Source of the DNA: a virus
Taxonomy: Duplodnaviria; Heunggongvirae; Uroviricota; Caudoviricetes
DNA: 7,812 nt
IMG/VR virus record: IMGVR_UViG_2724679140_000010
Location: 1-7,812 of that record
Reading direction: 5' to 3' (one strand)
Part shown: piece by piece, positions 1-7,812 of the stretch
Numbering within the stretch: the first letter of the stretch is position 1
How the letters are laid out: every line of letters begins with the position of its first letter
Position numbers and translations under genes: made by a program
Notes under the pieces: model-generated
Databases searched by the model: none
Seen by the model: only the letters and a program-made list of their open reading frames with translations
Told to the model about the DNA's origin: nothing

Positions 1-154
1 AACTTAACTGATATCCCTTTTTACGGATAAAGGTATTCAAGCCTGACACATCATGCGCTGTATCGTCGTCGTATTCCCGTATTAACAGAGACCGTAGCCC
101 GACGGGGAACTCCTTCTGCGCGAGTGTGCGGTAATAATCAAAAACGATGCGCAC
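1..154 (-). CDS. Possible 5' part of a minus-strand ORF running off the window start (hypothetical protein); start codon uncertain
   Basis: Reverse-complement frame is open for 49+ codons from the window edge, bounded upstream by a stop (TTA on + strand at 161-163). N-terminal translation is (V)RIVFDYYRTLAQKEFPVGLRSLLIREYDDDTAHDVSGLNTFIRKKGYQLS. Only a GTG start (+152-154) is available and there is no Shine-Dalgarno. An open frame of this length has roughly a 10% chance of arising by chance. Confidence 0.2.
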   Translation of the reverse strand, partial: MRIVFDYYRTLAQKEFPVGLRSLLIREYDDDTAHDVSGLNTFIRKKGYQLS

Positions 155-189
155 CGGGTTTTAGTGTGCTGACGGACGCAGGTTTACCC

Positions 190-669
190 TCATAGTCGCT
201 TTTCCGGTGCGATGGTGGAAGAAACCGGAATAATGAATTGTGAATGCAAAATGTGGTTTCTTACTGAGTAATACTGGCAGTGTTTTCTGTTTACATCCAG
301 AACATATTTAAAGATGCCTGCACGGGAAAGAGTAAAGTGGCTCCGGAAGAAGGGTATGTTTCCGGATAAATGTTTTTTTATAACCAGTTTTGTCCAGATA
401 TTATTTGACCTGTGGTTTATATAAGCAGATCTTTTTTGGGGCTGTACCGTGATCATACTTTGATTATGTGTGGTAAACCTTATATTCCCTGTTGACAGAA
501 AGTAAAAACAATGCGAGATGCCATTTTTATTAAGGTAATCAGTAACGGAAATAATATCATTATCGTGTGATGAAATAAGCAACGATATAACAGAGGTTAG
601 CCGACTATTCTCTGTGGAAACACAATCTGGTGGTGATAAATCTGAATGAGTTATGTAAAAATTGAACAT
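190..669 (-). CDS. Hypothetical 159-aa ORF in the AT-rich right-end region; doubtful as a real gene
   Basis: A 480-nt open frame is statistically unusual in ~35% GC DNA. However, the translation is Ser/His/Asn/Ile/Thr-rich with almost no Glu or Ala, there is no Shine-Dalgarno before the ATG at 669, and I recognise no family. Confidence 0.2.
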   Translation of the reverse strand: MFNFYITHSDLSPPDCVSTENSRLTSVISLLISSHDNDIISVTDYLNKNGISHCFYFLSTGNIRFTTHNQSMITVQPQKRSAYINHRSNNIWTKLVIKKHLSGNIPFFRSHFTLSRAGIFKYVLDVNRKHCQYYSVRNHILHSQFIIPVSSTIAPEKRL

Positions 670-1077
670 GTAAAAAGATGGTGTTTAACTGAAGGTATAG
701 TACTGCTGGAAAATAATAAACTGAAAAGTGAATGTCTATTAGTTATTTCCGCATGGTAAATCAGAGGTATTGTTTTCTTGCTAATTTATTAAAGTGATAA
801 GTCTTATCTTGATTTTAGATATAAACTTTTATCAGGCCTTATCAACTTACATCTTCAGTATTGGAGGCAGTGCCAGTTACGTAAGGACGCAATGCCTGGT
901 ATTTAAGCGAAGTGATCGACTGGATAAATAATATTCCTCGCGCTTCTGAATGTTGCCGTGTTCCTGTGCCAAAAAAGCCAGATGTGCACTATGCCTCAAT
1001 ATTGAGCGTGTACGCCGTAATGCACGGGATGGCCGCTATAAGCTGATTGGTTGATGAATTTAGGCCCGCTCTGGCTG

Positions 1078-1092
1078 GCGGGTCCTTTCCGG
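1078..1092. other. cosQ-like element (packaging termination signal) about 30 bp upstream of cosN
   Basis: GGGTCCTTTCCGG lies about 20-30 bp upstream of cosN. As I recall, lambda has the same sequence at the same position in its right end (...ACGGGTCCTTTCCGGTGATCCGACAGGTTACG). Confidence 0.5.
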
Positions 1093-1109
1093 CGATCCGG
1101 CAGGTTACG

Positions 1110-1121
1110 GGGCGGCGACCT
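1110..1121. other. cosN: 12-nt cohesive-end sequence GGGCGGCGACCT, the terminase nicking site
   Basis: Exact match to the lambda 12-nt cohesive end, preceded by CAGGTTACG (lambda right-end terminus) and followed by CGCGGGTTTTCGCTATTTATGAAAATTTTCCGG (lambda left-end start). It sits about 185 bp upstream of the terminase small subunit gene, as in lambda. Confidence 0.85.
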
Positions 1122-1154: not shown

Positions 1155-1270
1155 GATCCATGTCCGGTTTCTCTTCAGGTTAACTATATGAAAAATATAG
1201 AAACAGGTTTTCTGTGAACCGGACGTGAACAAAAAATAAACATGTAAGCCGGACATGACCGGTTTTGTTG
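1155..1270. promoter_or_regulatory. cosB-like region: three candidate small-terminase binding repeats around an AT-rich, IHF-site-like segment
   Basis: The motif GTCCGGTTT and variants occur at 1162-1170 (forward), 1218-1225 (reverse, AACCGGAC), 1250-1256 (reverse, GCCGGAC) and 1258-1266 (forward, GACCGGTTT). They are spaced about 50, 110 and 150 bp downstream of cosN, mirroring the lambda R3/I1/R2/R1 layout. An AT-rich segment at 1176-1210 contains the inverted repeat CTATAT-gaaaa-ATATAG. Exact site boundaries are not determinable from sequence alone. Confidence 0.5.
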
Positions 1271-1304: not shown

Positions 1305-1814
1305 GTGGCTACGCAGACTGAAGTTGCCAGGCATTTAAGTCTGACCGATCGCCAGCTTCGCAGATTGCAGAAATTGCCGGGTGCCCCGATATCGAATAAG
1401 CGAGGGCAACTGGATCTGGATGCCTGGCGCGATTTTTACATATCGTATCTGAGGAGAAGTAAAAACGATGTGCCTGGTGGCGATAGCGAAGACGACTATG
1501 AGGAGAAATTGCTTATTGCCAGATGGGAACTGACAGCAGAACAGGCTGTTACACAGCAGTTAAAAAATGAGGTGTCAAAAGGAAAACTTATTGACACCGG
1601 GTTCTGTATTTTTGCCCTCAGTAAGCTGGCAATGGCGTTATCCAGTACGCTTGATTCCATCCCTTTATCCATGCAGCGACAGTTTCCTGATTTAACACCG
1701 CGCCATCTTGACCATCTGAAAACCCTTATTGCGAAGGGGGCAAATCAGTGTGCGCGGGCGGGGGATAAATTACCGGATTTACTCGATGAATATATCAGAG
1801 CAACAACTGAATAA
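1305..1814 (+). CDS. nu1: Terminase small subunit (lambda Nu1-like), 169 aa, GTG start
   Basis: C-terminal half (…TGFCIFALSKLAMALSSTLDSIPLSMQRQFPDLTPRHLDHLK…LPDLLDEYI) resembles lambda gpNu1 as I recall it. The N-terminus has a helix-turn-helix-like segment (TQTEVARHLSLTDRQLRRL) but differs from lambda. GTG at 1305 has GAGG 6 nt upstream and an in-frame stop immediately upstream. It sits between cos and the large terminase gene. Confidence 0.88.
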   Translation: MATQTEVARHLSLTDRQLRRLQKLPGAPISNKRGQLDLDAWRDFYISYLRRSKNDVPGGDSEDDYEEKLLIARWELTAEQAVTQQLKNEVSKGKLIDTGFCIFALSKLAMALSSTLDSIPLSMQRQFPDLTPRHLDHLKTLIAKGANQCARAGDKLPDLLDEYIRATTE

Positions 1815-3714
1815 TATGATGAGCGCTGTCACAACAGCATTACAGCCCCTGATAAGGGCATTGCCGGTGACGCCAGTTGAATGGGCTGATCAAAATTATT
1901 ATCTGCCGAAAGAATCTTCATATGGTGAGGGAGAATGGAAAACGCTGCCATTCCAGATCGCCATCATGAACAGCATGGGGAATGATCAGATCCGCACTGT
2001 TAATCTGATTAAATCTGCCCGTGTTGGCTATACAAAGATGTTGCTGGGGGTGGTCGGATATTTTATTGAGCATAAATCCCGAAACAGTCTGCTTTTTCAG
2101 CCCACGGATTCTGCCGCTGAAGATTTTATGAAGTCTCACGTGGAGGCGACGATTCGGGACGTGCCATGCCTGAAAGACCTTTCCCCATGGCTGGGTCGTA
2201 AACATCGTGACAATACTCTCACGCTGAAACGCTTTTCATCGGGTGTGGGCTTCTGGTGCCTGGGCGGCGCTGCCGCCAAAAACTACCGTGAAAAATCCGT
2301 GGACGTGGTCTGCTATGACGAACTTTCCTCGTTCGAGCCGGATGTCGAAAAAGAGGGCTCGCCAACCCTGCTGGGGGATAAGCGTATTGAGGGCTCTGTA
2401 TGGCCAAAATCCATTCGCGGCTCGACGCCTAAAATCAAAGGCTCCTGCCAGATCGAAAAAGCCGCTAACGAGTCGGCACATTTCATGCGTTTTTATGTGC
2501 CCTGTCCGCACTGTGGGGAGGAGCAGTATCTGAAATTTGGCGATGATGCCTCGCTTTTCGGTCTTAAGTGGGAGAAGAATAAGCCAGAAAGTGTTTTCTA
2601 CCTTTGTGAGCATCATGGCTGTGTGATCCATCAGTCTGAGCTTGAACAGAATAACGGGCGGTGGATCTGTGAAAACACGGGCATGTGGACACGTGACGGC
2701 CTGACATTTTACAGCGCGGGTGATGAGGAGATGCCGCCACCGCGATCCATCACTTTCCACATCTGGACGGCCTATAGCCCGTTTACCACCTGGGTACAGA
2801 TAGTCTATGACTGGCTGGATGCGCTGAAAGATCCCAACGGCCTGAAAACCTTTGTGAACACCACGCTGGGCGAGACCTGGGAAGAGGCCGTGGGCGAAAA
2901 ACTCGATCACCAGGTTCTGATGGATAAGGTCGTGCATTACACGGCGGCGGTACCTGACCGGGTGGTTTATCTGACGGCGGGCATTGACTCGCAGCGAAAC
3001 CGTTTTGAGATGTATGTCTGGGGATGGGCACCGGGAGAGGAAGCTTTTCTGGTGGATAAAATCATCATTATGGGGCGTCCTGATGAGGAAGAGACGCTGT
3101 TACGTGTGGACGCGGTGATTAACAAAAAATACCGCCATGCGGATGGCACCGAAATGACTATTTCCCGTGTCTGCTGGGACACCGGGGGGATCGATGGCGA
3201 AATCGTTTACCAGAGGTCAAAAAAACACGGTGTTTTCCGTGTGCTACCGGTAAAAGGTGCGTCTGTCTATGGCAAGCCGGTGATCACCATGCCGAAAACC
3301 CGCAATCAGCGGGGCGTGTATCTGTGTGAAGTGGGGACGGACACCGCAAAAGAAATTCTCTATGCCCGTATGAAAGCCAGTCCCACACCTGCAGATGAAG
3401 CCACATCGTATGCCATCCGTTTTCCTGATAATCCGGAGATTTTTTCGCAGACAGAGGCGCAGCAACTGGTCGCGGAAGAGCTTGTGGAGAAGTGGGAAAA
3501 AGGAAAGATGCGCCTGCTGTGGGATAACAAAAAGCGGCGTAACGAAGCGCTGGACTGCCTGGTGTATGCCTACGCAGCATTACGTGTGTCCGTGCAACGC
3601 TGGCAGCTTGATCTGGCTGTACTGGCAAAATCCCGGGAAGAAGAGACGACCCGGCCAACCCTTGAAGAACTGGCAGCGAAGCTGTCCGGAGGAGTGAATG
3701 GTAACAGTCGCTGA
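1786..3714 (+). CDS. A: Terminase large subunit (lambda gpA-like), 642 aa
   Basis: Matches lambda gpA along its length as recalled: MNIS… start, conserved NYYLPKE segment, Walker-A-like KSARVGYT, CPHCGEEQYLKFGD, TAYSPFTTWVQIV, FVNTTLGETWE, LTAGIDSQ, KKRRNEALDC. Start placed at the ATG giving MNISEQQ (19 codons inside the longer ORF in the track). Overlaps the nu1 3' end by 29 nt. Confidence 0.95.
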   Translation: MNISEQQLNNMMSAVTTALQPLIRALPVTPVEWADQNYYLPKESSYGEGEWKTLPFQIAIMNSMGNDQIRTVNLIKSARVGYTKMLLGVVGYFIEHKSRNSLLFQPTDSAAEDFMKSHVEATIRDVPCLKDLSPWLGRKHRDNTLTLKRFSSGVGFWCLGGAAAKNYREKSVDVVCYDELSSFEPDVEKEGSPTLLGDKRIEGSVWPKSIRGSTPKIKGSCQIEKAANESAHFMRFYVPCPHCGEEQYLKFGDDASLFGLKWEKNKPESVFYLCEHHGCVIHQSELEQNNGRWICENTGMWTRDGLTFYSAGDEEMPPPRSITFHIWTAYSPFTTWVQIVYDWLDALKDPNGLKTFVNTTLGETWEEAVGEKLDHQVLMDKVVHYTAAVPDRVVYLTAGIDSQRNRFEMYVWGWAPGEEAFLVDKIIIMGRPDEEETLLRVDAVINKKYRHADGTEMTISRVCWDTGGIDGEIVYQRSKKHGVFRVLPVKGASVYGKPVITMPKTRNQRGVYLCEVGTDTAKEILYARMKASPTPADEATSYAIRFPDNPEIFSQTEAQQLVAEELVEKWEKGKMRLLWDNKKRRNEALDCLVYAYAALRVSVQRWQLDLAVLAKSREEETTRPTLEELAAKLSGGVNGNSR

Positions 3715-3901
3715 ACTGCAGGCGCTGCGTCAGGCGCGTCTTGATTTATTAACCGGTAAACGGGTGGTGTCGGTCCAGAAAGATGGTCGCAGAATTGAAT
3801 ATACGGCAGCCTCTCTGGATGAGCTTAATCGTGCTATCAATGATGCGGAGTCGGTACTGGGGACAACCCGCCGCCGTCGCCCGCTGGGAGTGAGGTTATG
3901 A
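3698..3901 (+). CDS. W: Head-tail joining / head completion protein (lambda gpW-like), 67 aa
   Basis: The sequence …LTGKRVVSVQKDGRRIEYTAASLDELNRAI…TRRRRP resembles lambda gpW (68 aa) as recalled. GGAGG lies upstream of the ATG. Stop overlaps the B start as ATGA. Confidence 0.88.
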   Translation: MVTVAELQALRQARLDLLTGKRVVSVQKDGRRIEYTAASLDELNRAINDAESVLGTTRRRRPLGVRL

Positions 3902-5490
3902 AACGAACGCCAGTCCTGATTGATGTGAACGGCGTTCCGCTTCGTGAGAGTCTCAGCTACAACGGGGGCGGCGCAGGATTTGGCGGGCAAATGGCCGAGT
4001 GGTTACCACCGGCGCAGGGTGTTGATGCTGCCCTGCTGCCTGCGTTGCGTCTGGGGAATGCCCGTGCAGATGATCTGGTACGCAATAACGGTATAGCGGC
4101 CAATGCGGTGGCCCTGCATAAGGATCACATTGTCGGGCACATGTTTCTTATTAGTTACCGTCCGAACTGGCGCTGGCTTGGGATGCGGGAGTCCGCGGCA
4201 AAAATCTTTGTCGATGAGGTGGAGGCGGCCTGGTCGGAATACGCGGAAGGAATGTTTGGCGAGATCGATGTGGAAGGGAAACGCACCTTTACGGAATTTA
4301 TCCGTGAAGGTGTGGGCGTTCATGCATTTAACGGTGAAATCTTTGTGCAGCCGGTCTGGGATACGGAAACCACACGGTTATTCCGCACGCGTTTTAAAGC
4401 CGTGAGCCCTAAACGGGTGGACACGCCGGGACACGGTATGGGTAACCGTTTCCTGCGGGCCGGGGTGGAAGTCGATCGGTATGGACGGGCCGTTGCGTAC
4501 CATATCTGTGAGGATGATTTTCCGTTCTCTGGTCGTGGACGATGGGAACGGATCCCGCGTGAACTTCCCACCGGGCGTCCGGCCATGCTGCATATTTTCG
4601 AGCCGGTTGAGGACGGGCAGACCCGTGGGGCTAATCAGTTTTACAGCGTCATGGAACGGCTGAAAATGCTCGATTCCCTGCAGACCACGCAGCTTCAGTC
4701 GGCCATAGTGAAGGCGATGTATGCAGCGACGATTGAAAGTGAACTCGATACCGAAAAGGCCTTTGAATATATCGCGGGTGCACCGCAGAGTCAGCAGGAT
4801 AATCCGCTCATTAATATTCTGGAGAAGTTCACCCGCTGGTATGACACGAATAACGTGACGCTGGGCGGTGTCAAAATTCCGCACCTTTTCCCCGGGGATG
4901 ATTTGAAACTGCAGACTGCGCAGGATTCAGATAATGGATTTTCTGCGCTTGAACAGGCGCTGCTGCGGTATATCGCCGCCGGTCTTGGTGTTTCCTACGA
5001 ACAGTTGTCCCGTGATTACTCGAAGGTCAGTTACTCAAGTGCCCGTGCCTCAGCCAATGAGTCGTGGCGTTATTTTATGGGGCGACGAAAATTTATTGCG
5101 TCCCGGCTGGCCACGCAGATGTTTTCCTGCTGGCTGGAAGAGGCGCTTCTTCGGGGGATTATTCGTCCGCCACGGGCGCGTTTTGATTTTTATCAGGCGC
5201 GTTCAGCCTGGTCACGGGCAGAGTGGATTGGCTCCGGAAGAATGGCCATTGATGGACTCAAGGAGGTTCAGGAGTCGGTGATGCGCATTGAGGCCGGACT
5301 GAGCACGTATGAGAAAGAGCTGGCGCTGATGGGTGAGGATTATCAGGACATTTTCCGCCAGCAGGTCAGGGAATCTGCAGAGCGGGAAAAAGCCGGGCTC
5401 TCACGCCCGGTGTGGATAGCGCAGGCGTATCAGCAGCAGATAGCGGAGAGTCGCAGGCCGGAAGAGGAGACAACACCACGTGAGACGTAA
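3898..5490 (+). CDS. B: Portal protein (lambda gpB-like), 530 aa
   Basis: Size (530 aa vs lambda 533) and position immediately after W, translationally coupled via ATGA overlap, fit a lambda-type portal. The long ORF has coherent codon usage. Confidence 0.9.
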   Translation: MKRTPVLIDVNGVPLRESLSYNGGGAGFGGQMAEWLPPAQGVDAALLPALRLGNARADDLVRNNGIAANAVALHKDHIVGHMFLISYRPNWRWLGMRESAAKIFVDEVEAAWSEYAEGMFGEIDVEGKRTFTEFIREGVGVHAFNGEIFVQPVWDTETTRLFRTRFKAVSPKRVDTPGHGMGNRFLRAGVEVDRYGRAVAYHICEDDFPFSGRGRWERIPRELPTGRPAMLHIFEPVEDGQTRGANQFYSVMERLKMLDSLQTTQLQSAIVKAMYAATIESELDTEKAFEYIAGAPQSQQDNPLINILEKFTRWYDTNNVTLGGVKIPHLFPGDDLKLQTAQDSDNGFSALEQALLRYIAAGLGVSYEQLSRDYSKVSYSSARASANESWRYFMGRRKFIASRLATQMFSCWLEEALLRGIIRPPRARFDFYQARSAWSRAEWIGSGRMAIDGLKEVQESVMRIEAGLSTYEKELALMGEDYQDIFRQQVRESAEREKAGLSRPVWIAQAYQQQIAESRRPEEETTPRET

Positions 5491-6985
5491 TCTTTCACAC
5501 ATTATTGCAGCAGCATTCAATGAACCGCTGCTTCTGGAGCCCGCCTATGCGCGGGTTTTCTTTTGCGCGCTGGGGCGTGAGATGGGTGCGACAAGTCTTT
5601 CGGTACCGCAACAGCAGGTACAGCTTGATGCTCCCGGGATGCTGGCTGAAACGGACGAGTACATGGCCGGAGGAAAACGACCGGCCCGTGTTTACAGGGT
5701 GGTGAATGGTATTGCTGTACTGCCGGTGACAGGCACGCTGGTGCACCGGCTGGGGGGGATGCGGCCATTTTCCGGAATGACAGGTTATGACGGCATTGTC
5801 GCCTGTCTTCAGCAGGCAATGTCGGATACCCAGGTGCGGGGTGTACTGCTGGATATTGACAGCCCTGGTGGGCAGGCCGCCGGCGCGTTTGACTGCGCTG
5901 ACATGATTTACCGCCTCCGGCAGCAGAAGCCTGTCTGGGCGCTGTGCAATGACACGGCCTGTTCTGCCGCAATGCTGCTGGCATCGGCCTGTTCCCGACG
6001 GCTGATTACCCAGACATCACGTATCGGCTCCATTGGTGTGATGATGAGCCATGTCAGCTATGCCGGTCATCTGGCGCAGGCCGGTGTTGATATCACGCTT
6101 ATTTACGCCGGATCGCACAAGGTGGATGGCAATCAGTTTGAATCCCTGCCGTCAGAGGTTCGCCAGGACATGCAGCAGCGCATTGATGCGGCGCGCCGGA
6201 TGTTTGCTGAAAAAGTGGCGATGTATACCGGTTTATCTGTGGATACGGTTATGGGGACAGAGGCCGCTGTTTTTGAAGGGCAGTCAGGTATTGAGGCCGG
6301 GCTGGCGGATGAATTAATCAATGCGTCGGATGCCATCAGCGTGATGGCCGCGACGCTGAACACACATGATACAGGAGGCACTATGCCGCAATTAACTGCA
6401 ACGGAAGCCGTCGCGCAGGAGAACCAGCGAGTGATGGGGATCCTGACATGCCAGGAAGCGAAAGGACGTGAACAGCTTGCCTCGATGCTGGCAGGACAAC
6501 AGGGCATGAGCGTTGAGCAGGCCCGGGCGATTCTGGCAGCGGCGGCACCGCAGCAGCCGGAGGCATCCCCGCTGAGTGAAGCCGATCGCATTATGGCGTG
6601 TGAAGAAGCGAAAGGTCGTGAACAACTGGCTGCAACGCTGGCGGCGATGCCGGATATGACAGTGGAAAAAGCCCGCCCGATCCTGGCTGCTTCACCACGG
6701 GCGGATGCCGGACTATCACTCCGTGATCAAATCATGGCCCTGGATGAGGCGAAAGGGGCTGAGGCGCAGGCTGAAAAACTGGCGGCCTGCCCGGGGATGT
6801 CCGTGGAGAATGCCCGGGCTGTACTGGCTGCTGCATCAGGTAAAGCTGAACCAGTCTCTGCCTCCACGACATCCATGTTTGAACGTTTCATGGCGAACCA
6901 TTCACCGGCAGCGGTGCAGGGCGGCATGTCACAAACGTCAGCAGACGGTGATGCGGACGTAAAAATGCTCATGGCCATGCCATAA
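5480..6985 (+). CDS. C: Prohead protease / scaffold fusion protein (lambda gpC-like, S49-type serine peptidase domain), 501 aa, GTG start
   Basis: N-terminus NLSHIIAAAFNEPLLLEPAYARVFFCAL and the segments GMTGYDGIVACLQQA, AGAFDCADMI, KPVWALCNDTACSAAMLLASA, IGVMMSHV, ITLIYAGSHKVDGN resemble lambda gpC as recalled. GTG at 5480 is preceded by GAGGAGA and overlaps the B stop by 11 nt. Confidence 0.88.
   Translation: MRRNLSHIIAAAFNEPLLLEPAYARVFFCALGREMGATSLSVPQQQVQLDAPGMLAETDEYMAGGKRPARVYRVVNGIAVLPVTGTLVHRLGGMRPFSGMTGYDGIVACLQQAMSDTQVRGVLLDIDSPGGQAAGAFDCADMIYRLRQQKPVWALCNDTACSAAMLLASACSRRLITQTSRIGSIGVMMSHVSYAGHLAQAGVDITLIYAGSHKVDGNQFESLPSEVRQDMQQRIDAARRMFAEKVAMYTGLSVDTVMGTEAAVFEGQSGIEAGLADELINASDAISVMAATLNTHDTGGTMPQLTATEAVAQENQRVMGILTCQEAKGREQLASMLAGQQGMSVEQARAILAAAAPQQPEASPLSEADRIMACEEAKGREQLAATLAAMPDMTVEKARPILAASPRADAGLSLRDQIMALDEAKGAEAQAEKLAACPGMSVENARAVLAAASGKAEPVSASTTSMFERFMANHSPAAVQGGMSQTSADGDADVKMLMAMP
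6383..6985 (+). CDS. nu3: Candidate nested in-frame scaffolding protein (lambda Nu3-like), 200 aa, sharing frame and stop with C
   Basis: In-frame ATG at 6383 (C residue 302, MPQLTATEAV…) is preceded by a perfect AGGAGG at 6373-6378 with 4-nt spacing. In lambda, nu3 is translated in-frame from within C. The exact start is an inference. Confidence 0.5.
   Translation: MPQLTATEAVAQENQRVMGILTCQEAKGREQLASMLAGQQGMSVEQARAILAAAAPQQPEASPLSEADRIMACEEAKGREQLAATLAAMPDMTVEKARPILAASPRADAGLSLRDQIMALDEAKGAEAQAEKLAACPGMSVENARAVLAAASGKAEPVSASTTSMFERFMANHSPAAVQGGMSQTSADGDADVKMLMAMP
6437..6860 (+). repeat. Three tandem in-frame repeats (~141-150 nt, ~47-50 aa each) within the C/Nu3 coding region
   Basis: Peptide units are RVMGILTCQEAKGREQLASMLAGQQGMSVEQARAILAAAAPQ, RIMACEEAKGREQLAATLAAMPDMTVEKARPILAASPRADAG and QIMALDEAKGAEAQAEKLAACPGMSVENARAVLAAASGKAE. 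The DNA anchor GAAGCGAAAGG is at 6455 and 6605, and GAGGCGAAAGG at 6746. Units have diverged at the DNA level, so the duplication is not recent. Confidence 0.75.
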
Positions 6986-7021
6986 AGCCACTGCTGATCA
7001 TCAATATGAGGTTTTAATAAT

Positions 7022-7369
7022 ATGGTAACGAAAACCATCACTGAACAGCGTGCGGAAGTACGTATTTTTTCCGGTAATGATCCGGCTCATACAGCCACAG
7101 GTAGCAGCGGGATTTCCTCGGCGACACCGGCTCTGACGCCTCTGATGCTGGATGAGGCCACCGGGAAACTGGTGGTCTGGGACGGACAGAAAGCCGGTGG
7201 TGCGGTTGGCATACTGGTACTGCCGCTTGAAGGCACAGAGACGGTACTGACGTATTACAAGTCGGGGACTTTTGCGACGGAGGCAATTCACTGGCCTGAG
7301 AGTGTGGATGAACACAAAAAGGCCAACGCCTTTTCCGGCAGTGCCCTGAGTCATGCGGCGCTGCCGTAA
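7022..7369 (+). CDS. D: Head decoration protein (lambda gpD-like), 115 aa
   Basis: The segments NDPAHTAT, TPLMLD, KLVVWDG, AVGIL and YYKSGTF resemble lambda gpD (110 aa) as recalled. GAGG lies about 10 nt upstream of the ATG. Position between C and E matches lambda. Confidence 0.9.
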   Translation: MVTKTITEQRAEVRIFSGNDPAHTATGSSGISSATPALTPLMLDEATGKLVVWDGQKAGGAVGILVLPLEGTETVLTYYKSGTFATEAIHWPESVDEHKKANAFSGSALSHAALP

Positions 7370-7377
7370 CACATTAT

Positions 7378-7397
7378 CAGGCCACTGCGGTGGCCTG
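7378..7397 (+). terminator. GC-rich stem-loop in the D-E intergenic region (possible partial terminator or RNA-stability element)
   Basis: CAGGCCAC-tgcg-GTGGCCTG forms a perfect 8-bp stem with a 4-nt loop, 9 nt after the D stop, followed by ACTTATTTCTG (T-rich but not a clean U-tract). Confidence 0.35.
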
Positions 7398-7425
7398 ACT
7401 TATTTCTGAATGAAGGAACTGATTT

Positions 7426-7812
7426 ATGGGATTGTTTACGACCCGCCAGTTGCTCGGTTATACCGAACAAAAAGTTAAATTTCGTGCGCTGTTTCTGGAG
7501 CTGTTTTTCCGCCGTACGGTGAATTTCCAGACCGAAGAGGTGATGCTGGACAAAATTACCGGAAAAACGCCGGTGGCGGCCTATGTCTCCCCGGTTGTTG
7601 AAGGAAAAGTGCTGCGTCATCGTGGTGGTGAAACCCGCGTGTTGCGTCCGGGCTACGTCAAGCCGAAACACGAATTTAATTACCAGCAGGCGGTTGAGCG
7701 CCTTCCTGGTGAAGATCCATCTCAACTGAACGATCCGGCTTACCGCCGTCTGCGTATCATTACCGATAACCTCAAACAGGAAGAGCACGCGATTGTCCAG
7801 GTGGAAGAAATG
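7426..7812 (+). CDS. E: Major capsid protein (lambda gpE-like), N-terminal 129 codons; continues past the window end
   Basis: MGLFTTRQLLGYTEQKVKF…LFLELFFRR…AAYVSPVV…RPGYVKPKHE…NDPAYRRLRII…VQVEEM resembles the lambda gpE N-terminus as recalled. AGGA lies 8 nt upstream of the ATG at 7426. The frame is open to the window edge. Confidence 0.93.
   Translation, partial: MGLFTTRQLLGYTEQKVKFRALFLELFFRRTVNFQTEEVMLDKITGKTPVAAYVSPVVEGKVLRHRGGETRVLRPGYVKPKHEFNYQQAVERLPGEDPSQLNDPAYRRLRIITDNLKQEEHAIVQVEEM

Follow-up and report, generated by a model that had tools for sequence, protein, structure and literature searches.

Three members of the DUF1398 family are encoded by Escherichia coli K-12, namely YbcV (prophage DLP12), YdfO (prophage Qin) and YcgX, and their genes occur as stand-alone genes in lambdoid prophages of Enterobacteria. 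DUF1398 is a recurrent cargo gene of lambdoid phages, and one with a solved structure; full-text searches turned up no paper giving it a molecular function. Several studies have reported on the expression of the K-12 genes. Both ybcV and ybcW were approximately 10-fold down in a pdhR mutant, with ybcV being PdhR-dependent (PMC7660256), while ybcV was more than 1000-fold up on overexpression of phage T4 MotB, which alters H-NS-dependent repression (PMC7827196). De-repression of ycgX was seen in an hha/ydgT mutant (PMC3686432), and ydfO was strongly induced by ionic liquid, its overexpression being reported to raise resistance to oxidative stress (PMC4077768). These data on the K-12 paralogs favour an expression that is low and conditional, from prophage DNA that is otherwise silent; they give no mechanism.

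The concept of the phage moron is said to go back to Hendrix, Juhala et al. Well-known lambdoid morons are bor and lom of phage lambda, whose products, Bor and Lom, are envelope proteins. In DLP12, borD is located directly beside ybcV.

The window examined here is a stretch of 7,812 nt from the genome of a tailed phage (Caudoviricetes), and the features of its left part are as follows:

1 to 231, no strand assigned: left flank of the variable cassette, conserved (many phage records match 1-229/231 at 87-97% identity)
Left edge to 154, minus strand: small ORF open at the left end, probably not a gene
190 to 669, minus strand: protein-coding gene of 159 aa, DUF1398 (YbcV/YdfO/YcgX) family (Pfam, PGAP)
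670 to 820, minus strand: upstream region conserved with the gene, comprising leader, promoter-like site and invariant block (megablast, five-sequence alignments)
710 to 738, minus strand: sigma-70 promoter-like site (pattern scan; conservation in five copies)
821 to 862: junction DNA
863 to 1054, plus strand: AlpA-family winged-HTH pseudogene, the 3' remnant of a 127-aa gene (PGAP; alignment with intact genes)
1055 to 1121, plus strand: sequence before cosN, and cosN (read directly; aligned with other prophages and satellites)
1159 to 1257, no strand assigned: probable cosB (pattern search; three exact copies of CCGGAC(A/G)TG)
1305 to 1814, plus strand: Nu1-type terminase small subunit (Pfam Phage_Nu1, 67.4 bits; PGAP 'terminase small subunit')

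In the lambdoid prophage genome, the segment of interest (190-900) falls at the right end, with an Rz-type lysis gene on one side and cos on the other. A sequence-only reading of this DNA had placed it next to cos, and this is borne out by the Nu1-type gene and by the sequence GTTACG|GGGCGGCGACCT at 1104-1121, which we take to be a lambda-type cosN from its agreement with the lambda end sequence, with a 12-nt cohesive end (GGGCGGCGACCT) at 1110-1121. In lambda, cosQ is found on the side leading up to cosN, here the side of position 1055. All exact copies of CCGGAC(A/G)TG in the 7.8-kb window (1159-1167, inverted; 1219-1227; 1249-1257) are confined to approximately 100 bp, and with up to one mismatch allowed no shuffled sequence reached the observed count. 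By analogy with the R sites of lambda, these repeats are probable TerS-binding sites. With the Nu1-type gene the late structural operon begins; in an identical record annotated by PGAP, genes for the large terminase, head-tail joining, portal and S49 protease proteins come next.

The gene order at this locus, with Rz-type lysis genes on one side of the minus-strand DUF1398 gene and cos and Nu1 on the other, is also that of K-12 prophage DLP12 (rzpD, borD(-), ybcV(-), ybcW(+), ylcI(-), nohD), where ybcV occupies the same slot in the same orientation as minus-strand cargo between Rz and cos with Nu1/nohD. Phages PhiR70_1 and Kati likewise possess Rz, a minus-strand ybcV-type gene, cos and Nu1. 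This repeated layout indicates a typical lambdoid accessory ('moron') slot. The window locus differs from that of ybcV in lacking the PdhR box of the ybcV-ybcW intergenic region and in having no ybcW, ylcI or bor neighbour. Its left flank (1-231) is common to many lambdoid phages and prophages, the part at 190-231 (the first 42 nt of the query) having matches in more than 1,100 E. coli genomes. Phage records share with the window only 1-231 and approximately 1050-1154, so that the slot is conserved while the DNA in the middle is exchangeable cargo; in phage YDC107_1 no gene is annotated over the matched stretch. A distant DUF1398 gene occupies the second classical moron slot, which lies between the Q antiterminator and holin genes, and further homologues are stand-alone chromosomal genes with no conserved partner gene.

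The likeness to lambda bor and lom extends to several features: the DUF1398 gene is an extra gene between conserved phage genes, its orientation is opposite or independent, its composition is foreign, a putative promoter precedes it, and in related phages the gene is missing or represented by another allele. Unlike Bor and Lom, the window protein has neither a signal peptide nor a membrane segment. Also missing is one classical moron feature, a terminator, as no intrinsic terminator was found on the minus strand within approximately 600 nt downstream of the gene. Overall, positions 190 to approximately 820 very probably constitute a self-contained accessory-gene cassette, or moron, between the lysis genes and cos. 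The sequence-only reading had offered morons as one kind of content for AT-rich DNA beside the cos of lambdoid phages, and that guess was a good one. The segment is an ordinary, already annotated feature of a well-known kind.

Most of what had been read from the composition and layout of the segment was confirmed. It is AT-rich relative to the flanking structural genes, with a GC content of 0.353 for 190-900 and 0.291 for 670-865 against 0.542 for 1305-7812; by a rough calculation of our own, the drop over 711 bases amounts to approximately 10 sigma. The minus-strand ORF at 190-669 (159 aa, ATG start) is, as claimed, the only long one and is atypical in composition (GC of 0.362, with all three codon positions at approximately 0.36). 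The plus strand overlapping the segment contains no ORF of at least 60 aa, the longest being 45 aa. The absence of a ribosome-binding site was also correctly seen: there is no Shine-Dalgarno sequence within the 20 nt before the start codon (GTTAAACACCATCTTTTTAC-ATG), nor is there one in the four diverged relatives. The description of the plus strand as T-rich was not upheld, as T outnumbers A in the segment by just 237 to 223, with a skew of -0.03 that becomes positive at 501-700. The observation was thus largely correct; the reading of the segment as one without a convincing gene was wrong.

That the 159-aa ORF is a real and already annotated gene is shown by three lines of evidence. A clear match of this ORF to a known protein family had been named beforehand as the result that would speak against a gene-free segment, and one exists: residues 41-143 align to positions 15-117 of the 119 positions of the Pfam DUF1398 profile (PF07166; E=4.5e-19, 69.1 bits against a gathering cutoff of 22). 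The same ORF is annotated in PGAP/RefSeq as 'DUF1398 family protein' (WP_073519626.1). Related prophages, in which conservation had been proposed as a check, supply the third line. Copies with 84-88% nucleotide identity are present in the same prophage slot of four other E. coli lineages, three of them intact, and pairwise Nei-Gojobori comparisons (six) gave a dN/dS of 0.09-0.17, indicating strong purifying selection on 190-669. Third codon positions account for most of the differences between copies (for example 15/7/53). In the remaining two frames of the sense strand, dN/dS is 1.8-2.0 and there are 6-9 stops; one antisense frame also has a low value (0.14) but contains 7-8 stops. The N-terminal residues are conserved, which identifies the ATG at 669 as the start codon.

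Searches with the window protein also showed how restricted its subfamily is. It is rare (11 clusters at 90% identity), and among the matches listed most of the genomes with near-full-length copies come from rodents. A translated search of phage records returned only 6 weak matches, all ybcV-type, with the window subfamily absent from those records; an NCBIfam search gave no match. A small ORF running off the left end of the window to 154, downstream of the gene, was considered as a second gene and rejected: it had no PHROG match, its stop is variable and its pN/pS of approximately 0.5-1.8 (around 1) reveals no purifying selection. A two-gene operon is therefore not supported.

An essentially non-coding segment, whether regulatory DNA, DNA bound by H-NS or a locus for a small RNA, in which the 159-aa ORF is spurious, would fit the low GC content and the lack of a Shine-Dalgarno sequence. 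Both features, however, are usual in accessory genes acquired by horizontal transfer, and neither speaks against coding. Such a reading could further draw on the minus-strand RNA of 670-865, whose predicted fold is somewhat more stable than that of shuffled sequences (z = -2.55); however, the plus strand gave a z-score of +0.15, and a scan of 1-1400 against Rfam at E values of up to 1 found no match. The RNAalifold consensus of five homologues (-3.6 kcal/mol) had an unfavourable covariation term of +0.84, and only one of its 21 predicted pairs showed a compensatory change, the pairs joining invariant promoter blocks. With no Rfam match and no covariation in the five homologues, a small or structured RNA at 670-865, an option that had been raised from the sequence, has no support and was rejected. 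With these results, a Pfam score three times the cutoff, the purifying selection and a predicted fold matching that of YdfO, the non-coding interpretation is almost certainly wrong. No tRNA or tmRNA genes were found, and repeats in 1-1400 were limited to chance-level pairs and one cosB-related pair.

Conservation extends beyond the gene into approximately 150 bp before the ATG; in megablast, the matches to the diverged copies end at window positions 747-820. This upstream region contains a sigma-70 promoter-like site on the minus strand, with a -35 hexamer TAGACA (738-733), a 17-nt spacer and a -10 hexamer TATTTT (715-710) positioned 41 nt before the ATG. Five copies that differ by 12-16% in their coding regions agree at every base of both hexamers and in the distance between them. 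It is the only minus-strand promoter-like site of the conserved upstream region and scores 9 of 12; as the number of such sites found (2) is not above that expected by chance (3.2), only its position and its conservation speak for it. Another invariant block (TGCTAATTTATT) is present at 780-791. Transcription is predicted to start near 703, with a leader of approximately 34 nt that lacks a Shine-Dalgarno sequence.

The DUF1398 gene may have a sigma-70 promoter to itself (738-710) and so not depend on the late promoter of the phage; in that case, and by analogy with the transcription of ybcV, ydfO and ycgX in K-12 cryptic prophages, one would expect expression in the lysogen rather than a virion component. 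During lytic growth, convergent late transcription across cos would oppose the gene. Translation would begin from the conserved ATG at 669; as no Shine-Dalgarno sequence precedes this codon, output may be low or conditional. Given the low GC content of this DNA (29-36%), expression is probably kept low through silencing of the H-NS/Hha type, to be released by particular stresses as has been published for ybcV, ycgX and ydfO of K-12. A search with an H-NS nucleation motif identified one site with 2 mismatches at 783-792, and 14 sites in the whole window against 7.1 expected; the search was uninformative. As the PdhR box of ybcV is also absent from the window locus, regulation as described for K-12 is not simply transferable.

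The window protein is a diverged member of its family. YbcV, found in DLP12 and also in PhiR70_1/Kati, is only approximately 23% identical to it over 106 residues, so that the function of this subfamily may differ. A sequence match to YdfO, the one DUF1398 member with a solved structure (PDB accession no. 2HH8), was obtained at E=1.2e-6. With 159 aa, the protein is larger than the single-domain proteins of approximately 130 aa typical of DUF1398, and its domain is complete (residues ~20-146). Compared with YbcV, YdfO and YcgX, it possesses a conserved, subfamily-specific N-terminal extension (residues 1-19) and a tail (residues ~147-159) whose codons lie in the conserved flank 190-231; in PhiR70_1 and Kati, this flank is non-coding DNA 3' of ybcV. 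It is also more basic, with a pI of 9.75. The tail is variable, some alleles reading 18 codons further to give 177-aa forms.

A profile search of 1.8 billion representatives recovered only 19 clusters at E values of up to 0.001. Structure prediction from nine close homologues alone reached a pLDDT of 31.5, while the 19-sequence alignment including distant DUF1398 members gave a usable model (pLDDT of 80.7, pTM of 0.74). The model predicts two helix-helix-three-strand units, which is the fold of YdfO and is shared with YbcV and YcgX, together with an N-terminal strand and a low-confidence tail as additions of the subfamily. A fold search of the viral BFVD set returned nothing significant. No hydrophobic segment is present (maximum Kyte-Doolittle value of 1.0 for a 19-residue window). 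One glycine is the only invariant column across the family; in the YbcV/YdfO branch, neither H100 nor the other conserved polar positions are retained.

It is extremely unlikely that the product is a virion 'head protein', the annotation which PHROG 413 and pharokka-type pipelines would give it. PHROG 413 carries this label in the category 'head and packaging', it is matched by the window protein (E=3e-10) and by YbcV of PhiR70_1 (E=4e-85), and the gene adjoins the head genes. The gene and the late operon are, however, on opposite strands, and the gene has its own promoter-like site; homologues are located between Q and the holin gene as well as at non-phage chromosomal sites. In K-12, the paralogs show regulated transcription in cryptic prophages, which produce no heads, one natural copy of the window gene is frameshifted, and fold searches found no similarity to any head, decoration or scaffold protein. 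The PHROG label is probably wrong and is being propagated into new phage annotations.

If the gene is real, there is roughly an even chance that its product is a soluble, non-enzymatic binder; this view draws on negative evidence, namely no catalytic signature and no fold analogue. Such a protein, being neither an enzyme nor a membrane or structural protein, could act in the cytoplasm by binding a host protein or nucleic acid and so alter host physiology or stress tolerance.

The prophage carrying the window may offer a route to this role. Positions 190-900 are identical in nine listed genomes of mouse E. coli, with the ORF intact in all nine, and one of them is the evolved invader strain IGC_EcoliInv_1.1. 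The prophage of this strain contains ralR, a RecE-family gene and ydaS/T/U/V, and its end adjoins uspF-ompN. Gene content and position identify it as 'KingRac', the Rac-related prophage of mouse-gut E. coli (Frazao et al. 2019, PMC6731689). KingRac confers a benefit in the mouse gut which has been measured and is genetically unexplained (PMC6731689). A DUF1398 copy in such a tractable, fitness-conferring prophage is a cheap candidate for deletion and could help to reveal the role of DUF1398.

A role of the cassette in anti-phage defence or superinfection exclusion, rather than in modulating host physiology, is unlikely. It would be consistent with the slots in which the family is found, as both the Rz-cos and the Q-S positions are cargo slots and the cos-adjacent slot of related satellites holds TIR-domain and DUF2971 genes, and with a single, lysogen-oriented gene that has been retained in three cryptic prophages of K-12. 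One phage-resistant APEC mutant has ydfO on the list of its lost genes, which is a weak argument for defence and, if anything, points the other way. The window protein, however, matched no PADLOC-DB 2.0 family at E values of up to 1 and showed no defence-type domain or fold. Published phenotypes of its paralogs concern stress and not phage, and Frazao et al. 2019 (PMC6731689) saw no immunity of the KingRac lysogen to phage Nef.

Signs of decay at the locus raise the question of whether the gene is an evolutionary leftover in the prophage with no present function. The neighbouring AlpA gene is dead and the ECOR29 copy of the DUF1398 gene is frameshifted, from which it follows that the gene is dispensable; the variable C-terminal tail with its read-through forms and the missing Shine-Dalgarno sequence could be taken in the same way. 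Against this, the ORF is intact not only in the nine identical genomes but also in three lineages differing by 12-16%, where it is under the purifying selection described above, and the promoter blocks are conserved. A leftover is very unlikely, and a moron is the reading preferred here.

Between the cassette and cos, the window contains the remnant of an AlpA-family gene (863-1054), called by PGAP at 885-1054 as a frameshifted/partial 'AlpA family / HTH regulator'. Approximately 70 N-terminal codons are missing, a TAA stop codon at 882-884 replaces the GAA of intact genes, and a 1-bp deletion has occurred at 985/986; the native stop codon is retained at 1052-1054. The surviving part covers only the region after the recognition helix, so no intact winged-HTH domain remains. 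The remnant has approximately 91% identity to the intact genes of strains IAI39 and PEB20-37-A, and intact 127-aa copies at this level of identity are found in more than 200 E. coli genomes. The intact protein matches PF05930 (35.8 bits; cutoff of 21) and the AlpA structure 8c3t in the PDB (E=2.1e-9). It was also considered as an Rpp, the packaging protein of PICIs described in PMC6739421, and this was rejected as a PDB search gave no sequence match between the AlpA-type protein and Rpp chains.

Intact AlpA-type genes are located directly before cos in small elements inserted in the major capsid gene of lambdoid prophages. These elements encode, in order, an integrase, an HTH protein, an Icd-like protein, a primase, SSB, a lambda-E-like capsid protein and a decoration protein, then the AlpA-type protein, followed by cos, sometimes Nu1, and a gene for a TIR or DUF2971 protein. 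Tommasini, Mageeney and Williams described these elements as helper-embedded satellites and noted a 258-bp cos segment with 90% identity as common to satellite and helper (bioRxiv 10.1101/2022.07.18.500453). In comparison with these satellites (11capE type, Gram-negative PICIs), window positions 863 to approximately 1150 are approximately 91% identical to the end of the satellite late zone through cosN. The satellite segment starts inside the intact 127-aa AlpA-family gene, whereas the gene of the window is truncated and carries a nonsense codon and a frameshift; the cosN (GGGCGTCAGGCG) and cosB of the satellites also differ from those of the window. The dead remnant at 863-1054 belongs to a cos-proximal module common to phage and helper-embedded satellites. 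The window carries the phage-side copy of this shared cos module, in which the gene fragment has decayed, and the remnant provides a concrete trace of exchange at cos between a lambdoid phage and helper-embedded satellites.

The window is part of the Rac-related prophage KingRac, as gene content and position indicate: in the evolved invader strain (L017, NZ_CP054665.1 1393000-1442000) this prophage occupies the Rac site. KingRac has been described as active and as conferring a fitness benefit in the gut (Frazao et al. 2019, PMC6731689). In this strain the prophage also has four genes for tRNAs and a lom gene that carries a frameshift. The following features were located in the window:

203-231: inverted repeat TTCCGGT-N15-ACCGGAA, within 190-231
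863-1054: decayed 3' part of an AlpA-family gene (intact form 127 aa)
1159-1257: CCGGAC(A/G)TG, three exact copies, one of them inverted, in a 100-bp span right of cosN

Beside cos, the AlpA remnant carries two lesions, a TAA stop codon at 882-884 and a 1-bp deletion at 985/986, and shares approximately 91% identity with intact satellite genes that adjoin cos. This remnant is evidence for an exchange between phage and satellite at cos. Satellites of this kind were found in the genomes of PEB20-37-A (L009, NZ_CP062853.1 3597715-3609794) and IAI39 (L007), where a lambdoid prophage has its major capsid gene interrupted by an 11-kb element. The genes of this element are, in order, int, HTH, Icd-like, primase, SSB, its own capsid and decoration genes, an AlpA-type gene, cos, Nu1 and DUF2971, and the element agrees with the helper-embedded satellites published as '11capE'. 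Cargo adjoining cos varies between copies, with a TIR-domain gene in IAI39 versus DUF2971 in PEB20-37-A.

The prophages of ECOR29 (L004 2981-3950) and A8 (L005 2980-3895) have approximately 0.9 kb of unrelated, unannotated DNA in place of the AlpA remnant, located between the putative promoter region of the DUF1398 gene and cos.

The left flank (window 1-189, extending further left; L001 5801-5965) is common to many lambdoid phages and prophages. It contains a minus-strand ORF of 54 aa, annotated as a hypothetical protein in some phages; its pN/pS of about 0.5-1.8 and variable stop position indicate that it is probably not a gene. The adjoining flank DNA (190-231), which has matches in over 1,100 genomes of E. 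coli, supplies the final ~13 codons of the DUF1398 gene, while the same DNA is non-coding in ybcV-type phages. The inverted repeat within it marks the left boundary of the exchangeable cassette. In some alleles, read-through extends the DUF1398 product to 177 aa.

PHROG 413 names the DUF1398/YbcV family 'head protein', a label repeated in recent phage annotations (e.g. that of ybcV-type phage Kati, L011 1730-2155). Orientation, context and fold suggest that this is likely a mislabel. The ybcV-type phages carry a 77-aa gene of PHROG 949, whereas the window has no counterpart. In PhiR70_1 this additional minus-strand gene lies upstream of ybcV (L010 2207-2440) and shows a faint HicB-like match (E=0.007).

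The cosN 12-mer is not uniform across otherwise related elements (L003 ~3420-3440; L007/L008 ~3240-3260): it reads GGGCGGCGACCT in the window, ECOR29, A8 and L006, GGGCGGAAGGCG in L003 and GGGCGTCAGGCG in satellites L007 and L008. To its right, the CCGGAC(A/G)TG copies, with no further exact copy elsewhere in the window, are probably the cosB sites bound by the phage's divergent Nu1. This sequence is unlike the cosB of satellite L008, which is lambda-like. The Nu1-type small terminase of the window (1305-1814) matches the Pfam Nu1 model over residues 50-150 only, and the divergence of its DNA-binding N-terminal part is consistent with a different cosB.
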